A DNA stretch of 64,000 nt from a phage: sequence record PZ583738.1; one strand, written 5' to 3'. The position numbers were made by a program, and so were the translations under genes. The notes below the pieces were generated by a model that was not told the DNA's origin, made no database searches, and was given only the letters and a program-made list of their open reading frames with translations. Shown in pieces: positions 7,826-50,943 of the stretch (within the stretch, counting starts at the first letter, position 1; the number at the start of each line of letters is the position of its first letter).

Positions 7826-7850
7826 AAAAGGGGTGTACAAGCCCCTTCTT
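7826..7850 (+). terminator. hairpin (AAGGGG...CCCCTT) after rnlA, embedding an early promoter -35
   Basis: Weak T-run (CTTCTTTCT). Confidence 0.45.
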
Positions 7851-7862
7851 TCTATACATAAT
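7833..7862 (+). promoter_or_regulatory. early promoter (GTGTAC -35, 18-nt spacer, CATAAT -10)
   Basis: -35 lies inside the loop of the post-rnlA hairpin; upstream of the alc-paralog ORF. Confidence 0.55.
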
Positions 7863-7893
7863 GGTTCCATCAACTACTGATGAGGACCAAAAC

Positions 7894-8988: not shown

Positions 8989-9275
8989 TGAAATCTATCA
9001 TGGCAGTATGTTTGGCTATTGGACTCGTTTCATGTGCCCAGAAGCCCGTTGTGGAGCCCACAATCCAAGTTCATCCCAATTGGCCTGTTGCATTGGCTGA
9101 TTACAAACAGCAATGGGAAGTTAAGGTAATTGAGGGTCAAGCCTGGGTTGGTATGCCTTTTGAAGCATCGCAAGAATTCCGGATTTGGATGAATGATGTA
9201 AAAAGATATGTACATGACCAAAAAGGTATGTTATGTTATTATCGTTCTGAACTAAAAGAGGAACGTTGTAAATGA
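8985..9275 (+). CDS. o-spanin lipoprotein (PseT.2-like)
   Basis: Signal peptide with lipobox (AIGLVSC); 96 aa; start overlaps i-spanin stop; T4 pseT.2 position. Confidence 0.8.
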   Translation: MMKSIMAVCLAIGLVSCAQKPVVEPTIQVHPNWPVALADYKQQWEVKVIEGQAWVGMPFEASQEFRIWMNDVKRYVHDQKGMLCYYRSELKEERCK

Positions 9276-9378: not shown

Positions 9379-9408
9379 GTGTACAAACTCATGGGAGCAG
9401 AGTATAAT
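9379..9408 (+). promoter_or_regulatory. early promoter (GTGTAC -35, TATAAT -10)
   Basis: Upstream of ORF 9442. Confidence 0.5.
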
Positions 9409-9441
9409 GCTCCTACGGATTATAAAATTGGGGAAATTATT

Positions 9442-10663
<1,222 letters not shown>

Positions 10664-11614: not shown

Positions 11615-11643
11615 GTTTACTTTCACCACGGATGGTGTATAAT
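11615..11643 (+). promoter_or_regulatory. early promoter (GTTTAC -35, 17-nt spacer, TATAAT -10)
   Basis: Upstream of ORF 11673. Confidence 0.6.
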
Positions 11644-11672
11644 GAATTTCATCAACACATGAGGAAAACAAA

Positions 11673-15046: not shown

Positions 15047-15208
15047 ATGGCTAAGAAAGAAGTTAAAGTTGTTGATGGCTCTTCCAAACGCGCTGGTTAC
15101 AAGCGTGCGTCCAACCAGCGAATCAATCAGGTAACTGATAAACTTCAGGCTCGTGCTCGTGCGGTATTGCGTGCCGATGCAGCTTGCTTTGGTAAGCCGA
15201 AAGCATAA
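15047..15208 (+). CDS. hypothetical small basic protein (53 aa, MAKKEVKVVDGSSKRAGYKRASNQ...)
   Basis: Not in ORF track (below 60 aa); weak AAGAG RBS; immediately followed by a strong GGGACTC-TTCG-GAGTCCC-T6 terminator. Confidence 0.4.
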   Translation: MAKKEVKVVDGSSKRAGYKRASNQRINQVTDKLQARARAVLRADAACFGKPKA

Positions 15209-15213
15209 GTTCA

Positions 15214-15237
15214 GGGACTCTTCGGAGTCCCTTTTTT
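15214..15237 (+). terminator. intrinsic terminator GGGACTC-TTCG-GAGTCCC-T6
   Basis: Perfect 7-bp GC-rich stem, tetraloop, T6. Confidence 0.8.
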
Positions 15238-15252
15238 ATTTTCCATAAAGGG

Positions 15253-15282
15253 GTTTACAACAGGGTTTGACCAGTGCATAAT
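15253..15282 (+). promoter_or_regulatory. early promoter (GTTTAC -35, 18-nt spacer, CATAAT -10)
   Basis: Upstream of ORF 15326; shares a 22-nt block with the promoter at 37118. Confidence 0.6.
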
Positions 15283-15325
15283 GATTCCATACTGAGTTGC
15301 ACATTAAACAAATGAGGAAAATACT

Positions 15326-15613
15326 ATGTTTATGACTACTTACTTTGATACACGCAAAAATTTCTGTGAAGTTGTTTTCTCTAAAAAAGGCCCTAATGTT
15401 CCTGCTGGGTGTGAACCAACTAAAGAATCCATTAAAAACTATGTGGATATAGTTTGCCCAGTTGAATTCAGGACTGTTAATGGACGTGATACGCTGGCAA
15501 TCACCAAGCTTCGCCGTGACATTGATATTGACCCAATTGCAGCACGTGAAATTAATTCGTCTGATATTAATGGCGGTAATGTTAAATCACACGGTTTCCA
15601 GATGAGGTTCTAA
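15326..15613 (+). CDS. hypothetical protein (30.x array)
   Basis: 95-aa ORF with GAGGAAAA RBS downstream of early promoter. Confidence 0.55.
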   Translation: MFMTTYFDTRKNFCEVVFSKKGPNVPAGCEPTKESIKNYVDIVCPVEFRTVNGRDTLAITKLRRDIDIDPIAAREINSSDINGGNVKSHGFQMRF

Positions 15614-21242: not shown

Positions 21243-21272
21243 GTTTACAAGCACAAGGAAGTGCGATACAAT
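21243..21272 (+). promoter_or_regulatory. early promoter (GTTTAC -35, 18-nt spacer, TACAAT -10)
   Basis: Upstream of ORF 21304. Confidence 0.55.
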
Positions 21273-21303
21273 GTTCATATCAATTGCACATGAGGAAAAC
21301 AAA

Positions 21304-30193: not shown

Positions 30194-30978
30194 TATATTT
30201 CCACCTGTTTAATAAATTTATCGACCATTTTCCCATAGTGTACTTTAGGATATCCAGCTTCGACAGCGATTTTGGTAAATCCCGTTACTTTAGGTTTATT
30301 GTTATTTATCCAAAGTAAAAATAACTCGTCATATAATAGCCAATGCGGATATTTTTTGGCATGAGTCTCTTTCCAATTTTTGGAATGGTCTTCACTTCTA
30401 AAAGATTTTTTAACACCTTTATTTGCCTTTCCCGCCTTAGAACATGTCGCATAATCACCCGCCTTGACAGGAGTAAATCCTTTCATAGCTTTAGATTTTT
30501 TGTCACGCGTTTCCTGAGACTGTTTGGACCCGGTGTTTTTTGCCCAGGCCTTTTCCAAAGCTTTTAATTTCGCGGGAGTGAATCCGACTTTTCGCATGGC
30601 GTCAATATGTATTTGGAGACGTTCTGCGGACCATTCATATGAACCATGATTATTACCCATCAAAGCTTCACTAATTAAATGTGATGCCTTTTCTTTAAGC
30701 AGTGTAATGGTTCTTGAACTAACTTCTTTTAGGCGTCGACCGTTTGTCATACCAAATGCTGCGCGCCATAATTTACCACCTTGTGCTTTTGCTAAAATAA
30801 CATGAGCTAATATATGTTCACGAACTGTTAAAGCAACTAAATTATTAGGATGGTTGGAACCTCCAACCGACTTTGGTATAATATGATGTATTTCAATTCG
30901 ACAAGGAGCAGAGGTCTTTGTCCAACCCCTTGTCCTTGCATTTGAAATTAAATCATCGTAAATTTTTTGATAATTCAT
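30193..30978 (-). CDS. freestanding HNH homing endonuclease (paralog of the mobE-like gene at 4349)
   Basis: HNH motif (IHHIIPKSVGGSNHPNNLVALTVREHILAH); N-terminus MNYQKIYDDLI parallels MNYKKIYDSLI of the 4349 ORF; NUMOD3-like SQETRDKKSKAMKG; overlap-coupled between uvsW and uvsW.1. Confidence 0.85.
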   Translation of the reverse strand: MNYQKIYDDLISNARTRGWTKTSAPCRIEIHHIIPKSVGGSNHPNNLVALTVREHILAHVILAKAQGGKLWRAAFGMTNGRRLKEVSSRTITLLKEKASHLISEALMGNNHGSYEWSAERLQIHIDAMRKVGFTPAKLKALEKAWAKNTGSKQSQETRDKKSKAMKGFTPVKAGDYATCSKAGKANKGVKKSFRSEDHSKNWKETHAKKYPHWLLYDELFLLWINNNKPKVTGFTKIAVEAGYPKVHYGKMVDKFIKQVEI

Positions 30979-35778: not shown

Positions 35779-35799
35779 GGGACCCGAAGGTCCCTTTTT
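35779..35799. terminator. bidirectional terminator GGGACC-CGAA-GGTCCC between rnlB and gene 24
   Basis: A-run upstream, T5 downstream. Confidence 0.8.
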
Positions 35800-37078
35800 A
35801 ATTTATTTCAGTCAGAACTTTAGGAAGTTTCACACCAAGCAGTACAGACATATCTGAACGTCCTGCCATCAAATCCATATTTGTTGCATCAATAATACGA
35901 GCTTGTTTATCATCAGCAGTCACTGTATAAGGGTTAGCTGCTAACGCATAACGAACCATTAATGCAATAGACGGCTGCAAACTTTCTGGGTCAACGACAA
36001 CTTTGAACGAACCAACATGTTCAGGGTCTTCCAGGTCAAGACCTTCGGTATAAGGTGCATAAAACAGTGAACCCACCATCTCTTTCCCACCGAAATCTTC
36101 TTTAACACCAACAGTCACATAATCAAATGGAGTGTTCGTATCACAATAAAGCGGTAGACCATTATCCAAGAAACCATACGCATTATCGGAGAGATATTTC
36201 TCATCTTGTGGACGATGCTTCAACCAACCGGAACCAGCCAAAACTGCAGCTACACGCGTAGAAGCAACAACGTATGTTGCGGTGTAAGAAGTTGCCCGCT
36301 GAATATGGGAGACCATCTCACACATGATTTCGTACAACTTGCGTGAAGCTTCCGGAGAGTTAGTATAAGACAGGTCAATCAGGCCATCATCACAGAGCCC
36401 AGCAACTTTATAACGCTTGGAAACTGTTACCAGGGATTGCAGGATATCTTTGTTAATTTCATCAGCCATTTCGGTAGCTAACAGGTCTTCCAGGAAGTTT
36501 GGAGCGTCAAAACCGTTTGCTTCCAGGTCCTGGGCCAGTTCCACTGTAACAGTGCTTTTCAGCTTACGAGATTTAACCGGAGCATTCCATTTGTTAACCA
36601 AAAATTTAGCTTCGGCAATTTCGACTTCCTGTGGTCCTTCAAAACGTTCGGTGATTGCAGCTTCGGACATAATACGGATGGTCAATTTAACCATCGCTTC
36701 TTGAAGCTGGTCATACTCATCGCCCGTTGCTCCAGCAAATGGAGTTGCTACCAGCGCTTTATAAACTACATTTTCAAACTGGAACAAATCGTCTTTAGCA
36801 TAAACTGCGCCAGCAACAAAAACCGGAATGGTCGCACGGTCTTTTGCTGATACTGCACCAGAATAGGTTGCACCAGTCTGGAAAGATAATTCATCTTGCT
36901 GAGTCAGGTATTTAAGACCGTATAATGCCGCCAGTGGCTGGGATGTGCGCTGTTGTGCTACTAAATCGGTGTAAATCAGTTTAGTCGTAGCTCTGGTTAA
37001 AGCTACTAGATTCGGTCGACCAATCGAAGAACTTGTGGTCGTGGTCGACTCTTTTAAGAGTTCGTTAATTTTAGCCAT
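35798..37078 (-). CDS. 24: head vertex protein gp24
   Basis: 426 aa with gp23-like fold signature; position; TATAAATA ~26 nt upstream. Confidence 0.95.
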   Translation of the reverse strand: MAKINELLKESTTTTSSSIGRPNLVALTRATTKLIYTDLVAQQRTSQPLAALYGLKYLTQQDELSFQTGATYSGAVSAKDRATIPVFVAGAVYAKDDLFQFENVVYKALVATPFAGATGDEYDQLQEAMVKLTIRIMSEAAITERFEGPQEVEIAEAKFLVNKWNAPVKSRKLKSTVTVELAQDLEANGFDAPNFLEDLLATEMADEINKDILQSLVTVSKRYKVAGLCDDGLIDLSYTNSPEASRKLYEIMCEMVSHIQRATSYTATYVVASTRVAAVLAGSGWLKHRPQDEKYLSDNAYGFLDNGLPLYCDTNTPFDYVTVGVKEDFGGKEMVGSLFYAPYTEGLDLEDPEHVGSFKVVVDPESLQPSIALMVRYALAANPYTVTADDKQARIIDATNMDLMAGRSDMSVLLGVKLPKVLTEIN

Positions 37079-37103
37079 TGCTATTTCCTTTTGTGATATA
37101 CTT

Positions 37104-37111
37104 TATTTATA
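37104..37111 (-). promoter_or_regulatory. late promoter TATAAATA for gene 24
   Basis: Exact octamer on minus strand ~26 nt upstream of gene 24 ATG. Confidence 0.7.
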
Positions 37112-37117
37112 AAAGTT

Positions 37118-37147
37118 GTTTACAACCAGATTAAGATAAGACATAAT
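37118..37147 (+). promoter_or_regulatory. early promoter (GTTTAC -35, 18-nt spacer, CATAAT -10)
   Basis: Adjacent and divergent to the gene 24 late promoter; upstream of ORF 37189. Confidence 0.6.
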
Positions 37148-37188
37148 GATTCCATACTGAGTTAACAAACAAAACCTGGAGTTTAAAA

Positions 37189-37470
37189 ATGAACAAAGCA
37201 ACTTTCCTTCTGAACACCTTTAAAAATCTGGAAATTGAAGTTATTGCCTTGGTCAACAAATACCCAAATGGTGTTAATGGTAATGCTCTGAACAAACTAG
37301 TTAAAAAATATGAAAACTTAGCATATGACACTGATTTCTGGTGGAATGGTAATTATTCTACTCACACTAAAGATAAAAATGGTAACTGGTTGAAACTTCA
37401 AGAAAACAATGTTAACTTCAGAGACCTCATCAAGCGCCGGGTAGAAGTTCATTTAAATGGTATGGTATGA
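37189..37470 (+). CDS. hypothetical protein (early cassette between genes 24 and 23)
   Basis: 93-aa ORF with own early promoter and bidirectional terminator, opposite in orientation to the flanking late genes. Confidence 0.55.
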   Translation: MNKATFLLNTFKNLEIEVIALVNKYPNGVNGNALNKLVKKYENLAYDTDFWWNGNYSTHTKDKNGNWLKLQENNVNFRDLIKRRVEVHLNGMV

Positions 37471-37480
37471 AAACAAGAAA

Positions 37481-37502
37481 GGGACCTCAAGGGTCCCTTT
37501 TT
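37481..37502. terminator. bidirectional terminator GGGACC-TCAAG-GGTCCC between ORF 37189 and gene 23
   Basis: T5 downstream; A-rich upstream. Confidence 0.75.
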
Positions 37503-37520: not shown

Positions 37521-39080
37521 TTAAATTCCTTTAACATATACGCGGCGGAAGTAACCGTTCAAGCCAAGGCTGTTAACGATGTCCGGCATGCCGTTCTGAA
37601 TGCGCTTGGTCGGAGCCTGAGCAGCAGGGTCAGCAAACGGGTTGATACCGATACCGTAACGGGTTTTGAAGCCCATAACCGGCTGGAAGTTTTTCGGGTC
37701 AGAACCACGCAGCGGGGTCAGTGCAACATATGGTGCGTAGTAGATACCAGCATCCATTTCGTTAGCGCCTTTGTAACCGATGGTGAAGTAATCTGCACGA
37801 GCATACTGGTCGATATAGACACGGTATTTGCCACCCAGAACACCAGCGAACACAGCTTTAGTGGTGTCAACGTTGAAACCTTTACCCAGACCCTGAGCAG
37901 CATAACTAACAGAAGTATCAACAGCAGCCAGCACGTTAACTACGTTACGGGAAGCGATGATGAAGTTACCTGCACCACGACCGGTCTGACGAGCGATTTC
38001 AGCGGCTTCTTTATCAATCTGGAACAGTAAAGCTTTGAAGCTTTCACCAGCCCAACGAGCACCACGGATATCAATTGGGTCCTGGAAGTCAAACACACCA
38101 GCTTTAGCGCCAACGGTGTTGGTCATACCAGATTTACCAACCTGTGCGGAGTAGTTAATCCAATCGATAACTTCGCGGTTGATTTCCAGCATAATTTCGG
38201 TAGCCAGAATACCACTCAATTCGGCATCAGCATCCATACCGTGAACAGCGCGGAGGTCCTGTGCCAGTTCGATGGAGTAGCTTGCTTTCAGCTGACGGGA
38301 TTTAGCTTCGATAACTTGTTTGTCGATGCGGAAGCCCATTTCGTTCCACGGGTTATCAGAGGAACCGTTAAAACCTTCTTGCAGTTCGGCGATGGAGGTA
38401 GCCATACCTTCAGCCAGTTCAGCCAGCTGACCAGCTTCCAACAGAGCGGTTACAGCGGCATCCAGTTTAGCAGCATCAGTAGCAGCAGCATCAACAGTTA
38501 CAGCTTCAACAGCCTGGAAGTGTGCGGAACCTGTTGCTTCAAAGAAGTGAGAATAAATTTTACCAACTTCCAGAACTTTGCTTGCAGCCAGTGCTTCAAA
38601 AGTCTTAGCAGCGCCCTGACCAGAGAACATAGCGTTCGGAGCATACATCGGATGGAAAGCTTCTTTAGCACCAGCAGCGACAGGGTCTTTACCGTAAACT
38701 GCACGCAGGGCAAATACCTGGCCAGTCGGGTTGTTCAGAGGCTGTACGCCGCAAATATCAAACGCAATCAGATGCGGGATAGCACGACGAACCATACCCA
38801 TAACTGCCGGCCCAATCTGAGTTACTGCACCAGAGGTCTGGCCGGCAGCAATATTGGTAGCATCATAACCATGGTCACCACCGATTTCAGCTTCGGTCAG
38901 GAAAGAACCAAATGCTTCAGAGATTTTTTCGTCACGGTATTCAGGAGCGGTCAGAATATCTTGTTCCTGGTTTTCAAAGATTTTAGCGATGATAGCTTGT
39001 TTAGAAGCACCAACGATTTCAGGAAGAGCTTCGTTTTCCAGCAGAGCGGACCATTTTTGAACTAATGCATTCTTTTTCAT
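37521..39080 (-). CDS. 23: major capsid protein gp23
   Basis: 519 aa; long identical blocks with T4 gp23 (QAIIAKIFENQE, FGSFLTEAEIGGDHGY, ILATEIMLEINREV, GMTNTVGAKAGVFDFQDPIDIRGARWAGESFKALLFQIDKEA). Confidence 0.98.
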   Translation of the reverse strand: MKKNALVQKWSALLENEALPEIVGASKQAIIAKIFENQEQDILTAPEYRDEKISEAFGSFLTEAEIGGDHGYDATNIAAGQTSGAVTQIGPAVMGMVRRAIPHLIAFDICGVQPLNNPTGQVFALRAVYGKDPVAAGAKEAFHPMYAPNAMFSGQGAAKTFEALAASKVLEVGKIYSHFFEATGSAHFQAVEAVTVDAAATDAAKLDAAVTALLEAGQLAELAEGMATSIAELQEGFNGSSDNPWNEMGFRIDKQVIEAKSRQLKASYSIELAQDLRAVHGMDADAELSGILATEIMLEINREVIDWINYSAQVGKSGMTNTVGAKAGVFDFQDPIDIRGARWAGESFKALLFQIDKEAAEIARQTGRGAGNFIIASRNVVNVLAAVDTSVSYAAQGLGKGFNVDTTKAVFAGVLGGKYRVYIDQYARADYFTIGYKGANEMDAGIYYAPYVALTPLRGSDPKNFQPVMGFKTRYGIGINPFADPAAQAPTKRIQNGMPDIVNSLGLNGYFRRVYVKGI

Positions 39081-43396: not shown

Positions 43397-43399
43397 AAG

Positions 43400-44083
43400 T
43401 TATTGTTTCCTATGATAATTTTCTATAAATTCTTGTAAATCACGTAAAGATATACTATTATTTATATCCTTCGAACGATTCAATTCCCACGGAATCATTT
43501 CAAGATTTTCAATGTGTCCAATGATTTCGGGGTCGATATTATTGTCAAATCCATACTTGATGGAAACCTTGTGGTCTAATTGATATGCACCTTCAATTCC
43601 AGCTCTTCCGGTCTTTTCAAAATTTGGGAGATTTTGCACTTCAGATTTAAAATTTAATGCGGTGAATTGACGAACTGCATATGCATATCGTTTGAATTCT
43701 CTTAATCTTGGATTATATCGTCCGTTTAATTCCCCTCGAGTATTTATATTGGGAATACCCTTTTTGGATTTGGAGATTTTTACGCCTTTAGATTTTCGAA
43801 TTTTTAGTCCATCTGGTGTGTTCCAAAATTCTTTACGCAAATCCGAATAAATTTCCCATCTATGGCTTTTGCAGAATTGGATATTGATGTTATTTATTTT
43901 ATCTCGTGTAACTGTATATTCAGCTCCACATTCATCACATTTACAATCAACTTTGACTCGGCATCCCAAATGTTCAATGTTGATTAAATGTGTTGTTCCT
44001 ACTGAAACATCATAACCTTGCTCACGCAAATTTGTCACATTTCTATTAGTTACATTAACGAGTTGTTTATCACTTACTATCAT
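43400..44083 (-). CDS. freestanding HNH endonuclease with N-terminal Zn-ribbon, inserted between genes 18 and 19
   Basis: C-terminal HNH core (YQLDHKVSIKYGFDNNIDPEIIGHIENLEMIPWELNRSK); CxxC...CxxH cysteines in N-terminal half; TATAAATA late promoter ~115 nt upstream. Confidence 0.8.
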   Translation of the reverse strand: MIVSDKQLVNVTNRNVTNLREQGYDVSVGTTHLINIEHLGCRVKVDCKCDECGAEYTVTRDKINNINIQFCKSHRWEIYSDLRKEFWNTPDGLKIRKSKGVKISKSKKGIPNINTRGELNGRYNPRLREFKRYAYAVRQFTALNFKSEVQNLPNFEKTGRAGIEGAYQLDHKVSIKYGFDNNIDPEIIGHIENLEMIPWELNRSKDINNSISLRDLQEFIENYHRKQ

Positions 44084-44192
44084 AGTAGCCTCAAATCGCG
44101 CACCAGAGCGATTCTGGGACGATTTTATCCGTGTTATGTATAAACACCTTACTTAAAGGTTGCGTGCTCTATAATCGTTTATAGGAGCTTTA

Positions 44193-44218
44193 TGCTTTTA
44201 TTTATAACACGGTATAAT
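44193..44218 (+). promoter_or_regulatory. middle-promoter-like element (TGCTTTT box, 13-nt spacer, TATAAT, GGGTCTAAT extension) antisense to gene 18
   Basis: Same motif family as 11263, 28880, 34640; no plus-strand gene downstream. Confidence 0.4.
44199..44206 (-). promoter_or_regulatory. late promoter TATAAATA for the HNH gene at 43400..44083
   Basis: Exact octamer on minus strand ~115 nt upstream of the HNH ATG. Confidence 0.5.
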
Positions 44219-44291
44219 GGGTCTAATCTATTCCGTTAAGCAATTACACTCAACCATAATAGGTAAGAGGGGACTTTCATCCCCTAATTTA

Positions 44292-46271
44292 TTATTGTGG
44301 CCCAATCAGCTCATCGAAATTAGCACCGGTGCTTGTTGCTACGAAATTAAGCGTGATGTAGTTGATGCTGCGCGCCGGTTTGAAATAAATGCTGGCAACA
44401 AACTCATTTCGGTCTATGACCGACGGGGTGTTGTTGGTAGTATCACAAACCACACGACCTTCATAAATGCCACCGAGCGCACGAATACCATCCAAGTATT
44501 GAGAAGTTTCCATACGGAATGATGCACGAGTGAAGTTATCGTTAAGCTCAAACAGTTTATATTTGGATGCGTCACCGATATTTTTCTTCAGCATATTCGT
44601 AAGACGGCGAACGTTGATATGGTCCATCGGAGATGGAACTTTAGTTGCAGTCTTATCACCATACAGAACAAAACCATCACCACCTGCGAAACCAACAACC
44701 GGGTTGATAGCTTCCTGATACATGCGGTCACGTTGGGTCTGACGTGGTTCAACAGCCAATTTCAGAACGTTCAGAATCTGACCGCGGTTATAACCTGCCG
44801 GAGACATCCAAGGCTGAGAAACATCATCAGTACGAGCACACAGACCAGCCATATCAGCTGCCAGAGGAACCCAACGGTTAACGTCGTTATATTTATCATA
44901 CTGATATTTATAGTTGCCATCAATCGCTGCATAAGTCGTGCTGATATTCATGTTATCAGTATCAAATGCACCAGCACCTGTACGCCAGTCAATCAGGTTA
45001 TCCACTGCACGGGTCAGAGGAACGTTAACCAACAGACCTTTCGGCGGGGAAATGAATGCCAAGCAATCCTGACGTTCGTCAGCAATAGAAACTACGTGCT
45101 TCTGAACAGTGGAAGCGGTCGCATCACCTTCACCAGCACAAGCACCAGCGATAAGTAGGTTGATATGCAGAGCTTCACGGTCAGCGAACAGGTCCCAACC
45201 TTGCATCAAATCACCAGCGGTAATCTTATCGTTTGCAGAAATACCACCAGACAGATTGATGATACCACTGAAGCCTACAGGCCAGTTGCGAGATGTTGCA
45301 TAGATGTAGTTGGAAGTACCTTTTGCAAAGTAGTCATCCAGGTAAATGTTATTACCATAAACATCTTTTTCGCCCTGCTTAGTAGACAAAACAACGTTTT
45401 CGACGATTGCACCATCGCGGCGAACGATAATTGCATATTGGTTTTCGGTCTGAGGACCATAGTTAAACACTGCACGAGCTATAGAAGCGCGGGAACCACC
45501 ACCGGGGAAAATATCCAGATTTGCAGTTGCGCCTTTTTCAAATTCAGCTTTGGATACGATTTCAACTTCAAGAGTCGAACCAATTTCACCAGGATAAAGA
45601 GCAACAACACCCGGCATTACATATTTTGCCAATGATGCCTGGAATTCCAGAGAAGTAATTGCTTCTTCACTGTTTTCTGCTTCAGTCAACAGAATGCCAG
45701 AATCGGTAACAATTTTTCCGACAGTGATGGTACCAGATACACCGGAAGAAGTGGTCGTAACTTCTGCAGTCCATGCACTGCCCAAATTAGGATACTGATT
45801 AATAGTTTTAGCAAATGCAATAATCTTATTGGTAGGAATAAAGATTGCCAGAATTTTACCATCAACATCGACCTTGGTCACACGGCCAGCTGGTTCAACA
45901 ACAGTCTGGTTGTGTTTAACCTGAATAACATCACCGACAGCATAGTTTGTACCAGCAGTTACGATGGTAGTTTCAATATTGCCAGCAATAGGGGATGCGT
46001 TTTTAGCTTCGTCACGGTTAACAACACGTACAGTACGGAGGTCATTACCATATTGCAGGAAGTTCATCCCACTCATAAAGTAATCTGCTGTTTCATTATT
46101 CGGACCACCAAACAAATCAACAAGTTCAACTTCGTTTGTAATCTGAGTTACCTGGAAAGCTGGGCCCCACTGGAATTTACCAACCAGCGCCGCACGACCC
46201 GTCGCGTTACGAACAACAGTGCTTTGGACCGTTGTTTCTTTGAGCTCAATGCCCGGAGATAATAAAGCCAT
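44292..46271 (-). CDS. 18: tail sheath protein gp18
   Basis: 659 aa; colinear with T4 gp18 (MALLSPGIELKETTVQSTVV..., NVRRL.NMLK.NIG, NYITLNFVATSTGA). Confidence 0.98.
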   Translation of the reverse strand: MALLSPGIELKETTVQSTVVRNATGRAALVGKFQWGPAFQVTQITNEVELVDLFGGPNNETADYFMSGMNFLQYGNDLRTVRVVNRDEAKNASPIAGNIETTIVTAGTNYAVGDVIQVKHNQTVVEPAGRVTKVDVDGKILAIFIPTNKIIAFAKTINQYPNLGSAWTAEVTTTSSGVSGTITVGKIVTDSGILLTEAENSEEAITSLEFQASLAKYVMPGVVALYPGEIGSTLEVEIVSKAEFEKGATANLDIFPGGGSRASIARAVFNYGPQTENQYAIIVRRDGAIVENVVLSTKQGEKDVYGNNIYLDDYFAKGTSNYIYATSRNWPVGFSGIINLSGGISANDKITAGDLMQGWDLFADREALHINLLIAGACAGEGDATASTVQKHVVSIADERQDCLAFISPPKGLLVNVPLTRAVDNLIDWRTGAGAFDTDNMNISTTYAAIDGNYKYQYDKYNDVNRWVPLAADMAGLCARTDDVSQPWMSPAGYNRGQILNVLKLAVEPRQTQRDRMYQEAINPVVGFAGGDGFVLYGDKTATKVPSPMDHINVRRLTNMLKKNIGDASKYKLFELNDNFTRASFRMETSQYLDGIRALGGIYEGRVVCDTTNNTPSVIDRNEFVASIYFKPARSINYITLNFVATSTGANFDELIGPQ

Positions 46272-49526: not shown

Positions 49527-50315
49527 TTATTCATCAAAGAAACTATCGTCAAAGCTATCCTGTTTTGCCTTCGGAGGAGCCTCAAGTCCACGACCATTCT
49601 GCACAAAATATGGTTTAACATATTCAGCTGCTTCTGTGTTAATCTCATCAGATTCTGCATAAGGGATATCGCTGATATCTGTAAGGCCATCAATATTGTG
49701 GATTGGTTGTAAATCGAGCTCGCTGAATTCTGAAATATTAATACCTTCATTCCGTTGCAATTCAGGTTTAAGTTCTTCTCCGGAGTAAATGTATTTGCTC
49801 GCGGTGATTTTACGAATGGCGTTTTGACCTACCTGATAGAATGGGTCGTAAGGTTGCACCCATGTAATTTCGAACAGGCTGTTATCAAGAGGGAAATAAA
49901 TCAAATCCCCTGCAATAGGTTCGGTTCCGTTGCATTGATGTTTAAACAGATTAGGGTTAATCGATATTGTGATTTCATCATTCACAGTCATACCGAATTT
50001 ACTAAAGATAGAACCATCCCCCTGATAAGCATCGAACGTATCCAGATAGCCAGCAAATTTCCATGCTTTATCAAATTTACTCTGGAGGTCTTCACCGAAT
50101 AACAAATCCGGTTTAACGAATTGTCTTGGGATATAATAGAGAGACATTCCGCGCATCTGAATACTTTCAGCAACAATAGCATCAGCTAAAGTCTGGGTAT
50201 TTTCATGATGCATAAAGTTTACATATTGGTTGAGTATCTCTGACGAGTTTGTATTGTCATACCCGGTCCCGTCTTCAAGCCGGGCGAATAAGCTTGCATC
50301 ATAAGAATTACGCAT
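49527..50315 (-). CDS. 14: neck protein gp14
   Basis: 262 aa; position between 13 and 15; acidic C-terminus. Confidence 0.88.
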
Positions 50316-50943
50316 AATTCCATAATTTCCATTTTTCGGCTGTACTTTTACATCTGTAAATGACCGCAGCCGGAGTTATTGAATAATATTCTGCACATTT
50401 TCTTCCGGTACAAAATTCTAGGTCGCCAGTAATAATTTTACGTGCCGCCGGATTTTTATCATCAGAAAAATCAGGATGTCGGTCCTTAAAATCAATCCAC
50501 ATTCGCGCCGTTGACTCTTTACGACGTTTTAATCCTTCTTCGGACCATTCTCTTTGTTTTGCGGCTTCCGACATTCGTTTTCTTGATTCAGCTGTTCTCT
50601 TTTTACCAAAAGCAGGAGAATCTTCTGGACGACTATAACCTTCTGGACCACCTCCCCCTGTTGGATGTAAATTTGCACAATTATCAAAACTTTCTAAAAG
50701 TTCACTAACTAGTAAAGCTTCGGCTTCCTTTAATAGAGCAGGTGATTCAAAAGGTTTAGACCAGGTAATATCGACTAAACATTTTCTTCCATATTTTTGT
50801 TTAGCTCGTTTAACAATAGTACCCGACCCAAAATAACTATCCGCTTTAAAATCTTCATATGGCGAATGACGTTTACCGCCATACACCATTACCCCACCAG
50901 ATGTTTCAAATGTCGACACATAAAGTCTATAATAAGTAGCCAT
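50308..50943 (-). CDS. putative GIY-YIG-type homing endonuclease with NUMOD-like DNA-binding motifs, between genes 13 and 14
   Basis: N-terminal Y-x-L-Y ... VYGG pair at GIY/YIG spacing (~11 aa) followed by R, E and N positions; [13 protein letters not shown] (NUMOD3-like) and [24 protein letters not shown] (NUMOD1-like); overlaps both neighbours. Confidence 0.6.

Follow-up and report, generated by a model that had tools for sequence, protein, structure and literature searches.

Repeated early promoters that double as sites of gene shuffling have been described as PeSL (promoter-early stem-loop) cassettes, reported for RB49/phi1 by Arbiol et al. 2010 (PMC2839356) and for T4/PST and KVP40/nt-1 by Comeau et al. 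2014 (PMC4122927). They consist of strong sigma-70-like early promoters with stem-loops, conserved over ~100 bp and ending in the SD and ATG of small ORFans (PMC2839356; PMC4122927). The -35 and -10 are separated by ~17 nt, and the stem-loop is a stable one (PMC2839356). The cassettes are concentrated in hyperplastic regions, and they mediate ORF-scale shuffling that includes excision between tandem copies (PMC2839356; PMC4122927). The stem-loop itself can overlap either box, or it can be placed before the -35, between the two boxes or past the -10 (PMC2839356). Gaprivervirus is not covered in these two papers, which analysed other phage pairs, and no promoter analysis of this genus was found in the searchable literature, where the motif strings matched unrelated primers only. 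Promoter and terminator activity and mini-circles are experimental for phi1/RB49, whereas the Gaprivervirus cassette below is described from its sequence.

The second close comparison is the T4 early promoter (Pe), which is defined by a -35 of GTTTAC and an A-rich region (PMC1524935) and whose consensus (Wilkens & Rueger; Miller et al. 2003) we take from the summaries in PMC2988021 and PMC1524935. A review records that T4 early promoters have "additional regions of consensus" (PMC2988021), and a C is preferred just before +1 in RB69, RB49 and 44RR (PMC1524935). According to reviews, it is not known how T4 turns its early promoters off (PMC2988021; PMC3014915). For the early transcripts of T4, a strong RegB/S1 cleavage site, GG*AGRAYARAA, placed in unstructured intergenic translation initiation regions, is attributed to Durand et al. 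2006 as cited in PMC3014915.

The window studied here is a 64,000-nt stretch of phage DNA (PZ583738.1). It is 93-99% identical to the Gaprivervirus phages VR7, SP18, DK-13, RZ and P479, which are T4-like myoviruses, and its early-gene strand is the + strand. The original prediction was that two early promoters, at ~15253 (site 1) and ~37118 (site 2), share an identical 22-nt block behind GTTTAC and an 18-nt divergent spacer. Both parts of this description are borne out. The 22-mer CATAATGATTCCATACTGAGTT occurs exactly at the two sites (Table 1), and no further match at up to 3 mismatches is present in the window. At both sites GTTTAC lies 18 nt before the block and the sequence reads GTTTACAAC (15253-15261, 37118-37126), while the remaining 15 spacer bases agree at only 4 positions, the level expected by chance. 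An independent generic sigma-70 scan recovers both sites as TTTACA-17-CATAAT with 10 of 12 matches, and their PWM scores are 33.0 and 36.4 vs a late-strand maximum of ~11. The A-rich sequences ATAAAGGG and ATAAAAGTT lie upstream of GTTTAC at sites 1 and 2, respectively.

Both sites are intergenic, and each ends in the SD and ATG of a small ORF. Neither downstream ORF has a Pfam match, and both fall only into PHROG families without an assigned function. Terminators flank both promoter units. Site 1 is preceded by the gene 30.9 homologue (15047-15208) and its intrinsic terminator, and the segment from -75 to -15 containing that hairpin folds at -15.6 kcal/mol. The site 2 ORF is antisense between the late genes 24 (35798-37078, - strand) and 23 (37521-39080, - strand).

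Early promoters were predicted with an iterated PWM, for which the late strand supplied the background; a loose hexamer scan was noisier, with ~40 background hits per strand. The PWM scan predicts 41 early promoters in the complete genome of DK-13 and 46 in that of T4. The window contains seven early-promoter-like sites on the + strand (-10 at 7857, 9232, 9403, 11638, 15277, 21267 and 37142). The related versions noted earlier at ~7857 and ~21267 are real members of this set, reading CATAATGGTTCCATCAACTACTGA and TACAATGTTCATATCAATTGCA. Across the 41 DK-13 promoters the consensus is ttnaaaAAnnnGTgTACAa-N17-tATAATgatcCcAT, and nucleotides 1-14 of the block (CATAATGATTCCAT) match this genus-wide sequence. 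The last 8 nucleotides (ACTGAGTT), together with the leader, mark a discrete subfamily, which we call class A and to which two of the seven window sites belong. Positions 15-22 of the block are the minority state among the DK-13 promoters (32-49%), and the mismatches of these promoters to the block are bimodal, in that 11 promoters have no more than 3 and the other 30 have at least 7. The window site at 7857 belongs to another subfamily, class B (...CCATCAACTACTGA(T)GAGGA...), which has ATCAACTACTGA in common with a repeated module of T4. Class A (CCATACTGA) resembles class B (CCATCAACTACTGA) minus 5 nt.

The complete DK-13 genome has seven exact copies of the 22-mer and 6 further copies at 1-3 mismatches. 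These copies all occupy the early strand, where GTGTAC or GTTTAC precedes each by 18 nt, and in most of them the sequence continues into a similar leader (ACCAAATAAAACACTGGAGAATAAAATG). Four class A promoters form a tandem cluster within 1.4 kb of DK-13 (in the region 157.1-158.6 kb). Within IMG/VR, exact matches to the 22-mer are confined to VR20, VR25 and VR26, with 6-7 copies in each. Among the phages in GenBank, the 50-nt class A consensus finds 48 records, ~35 of them Gaprivervirus with 9-13 places each, while the genera other than Gaprivervirus give single, weaker matches. The block is thus the core of a promoter and leader cassette present in about 10-13 copies per Gaprivervirus genome, and the "two promoters" are those of roughly a dozen family members that fall inside the window.

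Table 1. Coordinates of the promoter elements, leaders, ORFs and terminators at sites 1 and 2, and of the other early-promoter-like sites in the window
Feature	Position	Strand	Details
Class B member	7833-7880	+	GTGTAC-18-CATAATGGTTCCATCAACTACTGA; -35 in loop of GGGG/CCCC hairpin
Weaker early-promoter-like site	9208-9253	+	ATGTAC-18-TATGTT
Family member	9379-9424	+	GTGTAC-18-TATAAT; hairpin enclosing -10; downstream ORF precisely deleted relative to DK-13
Family member, 17-nt spacer	11615-11659	+	GTTTAC-17-TATAATGAATTTCATCAACACA
Site 1, terminator hairpin and T run	15213-15238 (hairpin 15213-15232)	+	GGGACTCTTCGGAGTCCC; 8-bp stem, 5 G-C pairs; ends gene 30.9
Site 1, segment upstream of -35	15239-15252	+	from sequence; genus consensus ttnaaaAA
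Site 1, -35	15253-15258	+	GTTTAC, T4-type
Site 1, 18-nt spacer	15259-15276	+	variable among paralogues and orthologues
Site 1, block	15277-15298	+	-10 CATAAT 15277-15282; discriminator GATTCC; predicted +1 A 15289; first 10 transcribed bases
Site 1, predicted 5' leader	15289-15325	+	predicted unstructured; SD GAGG 15314-15317
Site 1, downstream ORF	15326-15613	+	95 aa; gp30.6 homologue, function unassigned; ATG 15326
Family member	21243-21288	+	GTTTAC-18-TACAATGTTCATATCAATTGCA; one hairpin upstream, another in spacer
Site 2, A/T-rich UP-like region	37097-37117	+	orthologues upstream of PsegD in T4 and of the C6 promoter in Dhakavirus
Site 2, -35	37118-37123	+	GTTTAC
Site 2, 18-nt spacer	37124-37141	+	no hairpin
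Site 2, block	37142-37163	+	-10 CATAAT 37142-37147; predicted +1 A 37154
Site 2, predicted 5' leader	37154-37188	+	predicted unstructured; SD GGAG 37178-37181
Site 2, downstream ORF	37189-37470	+	93 aa; phrog_6003, function unassigned; ATG 37189
Site 2, bidirectional terminator hairpin	37476-37502		closes promoter-ORF unit and gene 23

We propose that the block is part of a ~95-bp early promoter and 5'-leader cassette of the PeSL kind, which is repeated, recombines and is under purifying selection. This account is probably correct. The cassette is an expected feature of T4-like genomes, of PeSL type, and appears here in a genus-specific version. Within it, the block would comprise the -10 hexamer, the discriminator, the start site and the first ~10 transcribed bases. 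Judging from the consensus, the host sigma-70 RNA polymerase would be expected to fire from the cassette immediately after infection, and the predicted transcript start is the A seven bases after CATAAT. The transcript would then begin with a short, unstructured, A-rich leader carrying a GGAG/GAGG ribosome-binding site, followed by the small ORF. The modular identity of the copies, in which the -35, -10, initial transcribed region (ITR) and leader are alike and the spacer and flanks are unrelated, would have arisen by recombination or conversion between promoters, and purifying selection would maintain it. The repeated copies would in turn serve both as portable expression signals and as patches of homology for the gain, loss and swap of small ORFs. 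What appeared to be an odd pair thus becomes a genus-wide promoter-leader family of a known type.

The likeness to PeSL cassettes is extensive. In both cases, sigma-70-type early promoters are present in many copies and are preceded by A/T-rich sequence; conservation extends over ~100 bp, as far as the SD and start codon of a small ORF without an assigned function. Both are enriched at the indel and replacement junctions of close relatives, and in both a single ORF can be deleted by crossover between two tandem copies, as in VR26. Four of the five sequence-level features of PeSLs are present; the fifth, the stem-loop, is found at site 1 and family-wide, and not at site 2. Conversely, three properties set the Gaprivervirus cassette apart from the PeSLs of these papers. 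Its sequence is genus-specific (GTGTAC/GTTTAC ... CATAATGATTCCATACTGAGTTAC...), site 2 lacks any stem-loop, and conservation is strongest in the initial transcribed region, to which neither PeSL paper draws particular attention.

The stem-loops differ in position from copy to copy. In the window, the hairpin holds the -35 in its loop at 7857, lies over the -10 at 9403 and takes the form of an upstream terminator at site 1. At site 2, no stem-loop is found in or next to the promoter; the segment from -19 to +26 folds at only -2.4 kcal/mol and there is no G-C-rich hairpin upstream, so this promoter lacks the "SL" of PeSL. Pairing each spacer with its own -10 and ITR gives more stable folds than permuted pairs, both in DK-13 (-8.64 vs -5.74 kcal/mol, p=0.001) and, by the same comparison, in T4 (-8.90 vs -5.05 kcal/mol, p=0.0005). 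A hairpin around the -10 is therefore a feature of many early promoters. Its 3' arm is formed by the ITR (CCATACTG...) in several copies of class A, with the spacer as the other arm, and at 85996 in DK-13 the spacer and the class A ITR form a 12-bp stem. The 71-nt window segment 7815-7885 folds at -15.1 kcal/mol. Its hairpin, AAAAAAGGGG-TGTACAA-GCCCCTT (7828-7848), places the -35 of the 7857 promoter in the loop and so combines a terminator-like structure with a promoter.

A further property of the cassette concerns RegB, whose gene is annotated in Gaprivervirus. At its end, the typical class A leader carries GGAGAATAAAATG, which fits the 11-nt RegB/S1 strong-site consensus perfectly. In DK-13 the strong site is present in 5 of 10 class A leaders, in 1 of 13 class B leaders and in none of the 18 others; the class A leaders that bear it read GGAGAATAAAA. 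The motif is absent from the whole window, where the leaders of site 2 (GGAGTTTAAAA) and site 1 (GAGGAAAA) lack the full site, so the strong site characterises the typical cassette rather than the two window copies. It is plausible that transcripts of the typical cassette are inactivated by RegB, and this would not fully apply to sites 1 and 2.

In comparisons of close relatives, breaks in homology are concentrated at the promoters. Between DK-13 and VR7, 17 of 40 promoters lack a colinear orthologue, with most breakpoints falling about -45 to +72 from the -10. Random early-region positions are non-colinear in 61 of 300 cases (p=0.004 vs promoters), and only 36 have one-sided homology. A textbook excision of the PeSL type is seen in VR26, which lacks a 98-aa ORF (MFNAPAWHATQA...) that is present between two direct class A copies in DK-13, VR20 and VR25. 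The alignment blocks at this locus (VR26 L011 973-1022 vs DK-13 158028-157659) overlap by 50 nt, and this stretch corresponds to the class A sequence carried by two direct copies at a distance of 369 bp. The VR26 cassette is therefore chimeric, made by crossover between the copies.

Site 1 itself stands at a junction. The window lacks genes 30.8 and 30.7 (~840 bp in VR7), and the left end of the deletion lies in the class A leader and the right end at the 30.6 ribosome-binding site (junction 15295-15313). As a result of this loss, the 3' part of the site 1 leader derives from the ribosome-binding region of 30.6. DK-13 carries an independent deletion of the same region with the junction ...CCATACTGA|ACACCTGG, the right side being the 3' end of 30.7 (loci compared: window 15295-15313, DK-13 46953-46862, VR7 L001 3430-4370). 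These repeated, independent losses identify a recurrent hot spot. In JS10, LZ9 and others 30.9 is directly followed by 30.6, and T2 lacks 30.8. The right ends of the window and DK-13 deletions lie at short microhomologies and not at a second cassette copy; therefore, not every indel is a cassette-by-cassette homologous recombination.

At 9403, the window lacks a 162-aa ORF that follows this promoter in DK-13 (window 9403-9460 vs DK-13 53271-52749, with the window indel at 9445). Both ends of this deletion lie almost exactly at start codons, and the following gene is therefore the one that the promoter and leader now drive. Natural examples are thus available in the window and its relatives of PeSL-style shuffling, in the ORF excision, the losses of 30.8/30.7 and an overwritten ancestral promoter. 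The cassette provides an easy marker for immediate-early transcription units and hyperplastic junctions in the annotation of Gaprivervirus, and it is a candidate strong, portable promoter and leader. Gaprivervirus phages are in use for phage therapy.

Other differences between the window and DK-13 were seen in the same comparison. At 1403 (1388-1403), ~180 bp with a small ORF are absent from the window. The window segments 30219-30946 and 43399-44292 (~0.7-0.9 kb), near the ORFs after uvsW and at gp19.1, do not align to DK-13. A 211-aa ORF (50308-50943, - strand) lies between the late genes 13 and 14, where DK-13 lacks 627 bp. It is probably a free-standing homing endonuclease gene because it contains a weak NUMOD3 motif (17.4 bits, below the cut-off).

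The origin of the class A module is illustrated by the promoter in the slot between genes 24 and 23, i.e., site 2. Its upstream half, through GTTTACA, is conserved in T4 (PsegD), Dhakavirus C6 and Gaprivervirus. The three diverge between the spacer and the SD, where the class A sequence is present in Gaprivervirus only. Thus, an ancestral promoter acquired the -10, ITR and leader module of the family. Spread of a promoter cassette had been one suggestion in the original prediction, and it is supported by this replacement, by the multi-copy nature of the block and by the ORF-deleting crossovers between copies. A class-A-like promoter also precedes frd.1 (DUF5417) in Dhakavirus IME341 (L030, 118-200) and in Morganella phage MP1 (L031, 118-199). 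Both read CCCATACTGAGTTAACAA and have unrelated spacers. This suggests that the frd.1 promoter could be the ancestral copy, whose module was amplified in Gaprivervirus. In MP1 the frd.1 spacer contains a perfect 11-bp inverted repeat of the start region (AACTCAGTATG / CATACTGAGTT).

The strength of the constraint depends on the part of the cassette. Among paralogues within one genome, mismatch is 18-22% in the -35 and 6-8% in the block, whereas the spacer (~61%), the far upstream region (~74%) and the first 60 nt of the coding sequence (~67%) are at random levels. The VR20, VR25 and VR26 loci in this comparison were chosen by an exact match to the block, so a comparison of orthologues among them is biased, and the window and DK-13 are too similar to inform substitution rates. 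The unbiased comparison is that of DK-13 with VR7, in which orthologues were defined by colinear alignment through the downstream gene. In the six class A pairs, a small number, the -10 and ITR carry 0 substitutions in 132 positions, vs 9 in 102 for the spacer (Fisher p=0.0005). This supports the selection on the initial transcribed region that had been suspected from the extension of the block beyond the -10, while the factor-binding site suggested alongside it is neither favored nor disfavored by the data. In the promoters outside class A, the ITR (14/272) diverges about as much as the spacer (18/289), and the ITRs of class A and of the other classes differ (p=0.025). Either the constraint on the class A ITR is therefore unusually tight, or conversion among the copies keeps it uniform. 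The first ~20 transcribed bases are much more tightly constrained in class A than in the other early promoters of the same genome, a difference that touches on how early promoters are turned off.

The invariance of the class A ITR could reflect a specific function beyond general promoter or leader quality. In the alternative that survives best, the downstream conservation of class A is a specific cis-regulatory signal that goes beyond promoter strength and recombination. This could be a sigma-70-dependent promoter-proximal pause, an operator for an early shut-off factor, or a 5'-end determinant of RNA stability, capping or translation. The absence of substitutions in the class A -10 and ITR, against ordinary divergence of the ITR in the other classes, is consistent with such a signal. 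So is the frd.1 promoter, which keeps CCCATACTGAGTTAACAA in both IME341 and MP1, where it is single-copy and its spacer is completely different, and the stated lack of a mechanism for T4 early shut-off (PMC2988021; PMC3014915) leaves a role for it. Conversely, the leaders are unstructured and have no Rfam match, the use of ITR bases as the 3' arm of a hairpin in several copies offers another reason for the constraint, and gene conversion among ~12 copies could also maintain the identity. We consider a signal of this kind unlikely. Its narrower form, in which the invariant first ~20 transcribed bases (AUACUGAGUUAC...) would be a dedicated regulatory signal, with a pause site or the target of a shut-off factor as candidates, is a rather improbable one. 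If it were true, the ITR signal would unite roughly twelve small immediate-early genes in a co-regulated "regulon", and it would be ancestral at the frd.1 promoter across several genera, having been copied later to other Gaprivervirus promoters.

The pause site is a candidate because positions -1 to +5 of class A read CATACT (15288-15293, 37153-37158). This hexamer is -10-like in that it has the key A (position 2) and T (position 6), and the arrangement presumably resembles that of the sigma-70-dependent pause elements of lambdoid late promoters.

The second alternative is that the block is the general consensus of T4-type early promoters, so that the two sites agree by necessity, and the original prediction held that the block would then be ordinary. 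The sites do share much with T4 Pe. GTTTAC stands at -36 to -31 with an A-rich stretch at -40 to -44 in both, the spacing is 17-18 nt, A is found at -11 and T at -7, and the UP-like region is A-rich. They also lie on the early strand before early genes and show "additional regions of consensus" past the canonical elements. In favor of this alternative, CATAATGATTCCAT follows the genus consensus tATAATgatcCcAT with ~1 bit per position downstream of the -10 (41 DK-13 promoters), and a C before +1 has already been reported in RB69, RB49 and 44RR (PMC1524935). Conversely, all 46 predicted T4 promoters differ from the block at 10-17 of its 22 positions. Therefore, the block is not the T4 consensus, and the scan of the whole T4 genome rules out an ordinary T4 promoter sequence. 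The T4 -10, with TGn and TAnnAT and an invariant T at -12, is found at neither site. Class A has CATAAT, whereas T4 always has T first (C in 0 of 46), and the TG of an extended -10 is missing at -15/-14 at both window sites. The T4 majority sequence over the block is TATTATAAAACTATCAACTACT, and the discriminator and ITR read GATTCCATACTGAGTT in class A vs acaaCTATCAACTACT in T4. No class A copy is present in the whole T4 genome, where the closest matches (4-6 mismatches) are in coding sequence without a -35. Within DK-13, the minority state of positions 15-22 and the bimodal rather than continuous distribution of mismatches also stand against a general consensus, which we regard as a very unlikely explanation.

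T4 has a repeated module of its own that covers the -10, ITR and leader, TACTATACAACTATCAACTACTGATAC..GGAGAATAAAATG, with at least 5 copies. This promoter-leader module, AAAAATTTTTTCACAAAACnGTTTACA...TGGTACTATACAACTATCAACTACTGATAC.GA.TTGGAGAATAAAATG, is seen for example at 167062, 163649, 70672, 55360, 27056 and 6606 (L007-L010).

A recent segmental duplication or transposition of a promoter, or of a promoter-gene unit, between the two loci is the third alternative. The copies are identical at 22 of 22 positions and share GTTTACAAC, and site 2 forms a promoter-ORF-terminator unit complete in itself, at the place where T4 has a homing endonuclease gene. Despite this, the identity stops at the module boundaries: the spacers agree at only 4 of 15 bases, and the flanks and downstream ORFs are unrelated. 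The random level of mismatch in the spacers, far upstream regions and coding sequences of paralogues excludes a simple duplication. Furthermore, both loci are at unchanged positions across many genomes, and the upstream half of site 2 has orthologues in the promoters that T4 and Dhakavirus carry in this slot. This mosaic pattern, with identity confined to promoter modules, largely rules out a recent segmental duplication, which we regard as highly improbable. Site 2 does resemble "moron"-type units in having its own promoter, 93-aa ORF and bidirectional terminator, and T4 segD in that its ORF occupies the identical slot and orientation between genes 23 and 24. Unlike segD and other homing endonucleases, the 93-aa ORF has no nuclease or other recognisable domain. 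Unlike morons and insertion units, the upstream half of its promoter is an ancestral part of the slot that did not arrive together with the ORF.

A structured RNA or known RNA family can be set aside, because both window leaders fold worse than their shuffles (MFE -1.7 and -1.6 kcal/mol, z-scores > +1) and the window contains no Rfam match. A chance repeat of CATAATGATTCCATACTGAGTT is ruled out, since 0 are expected from 100 dinucleotide-preserving shuffles.

Finally, the block contains a mini-ORF, ATG ATT CCA TAC TGA (M-I-P-Y-stop), at 15281-15295 and 37146-37160. Because the predicted start site falls inside it, this mini-ORF would be present only in transcripts that read through from upstream.
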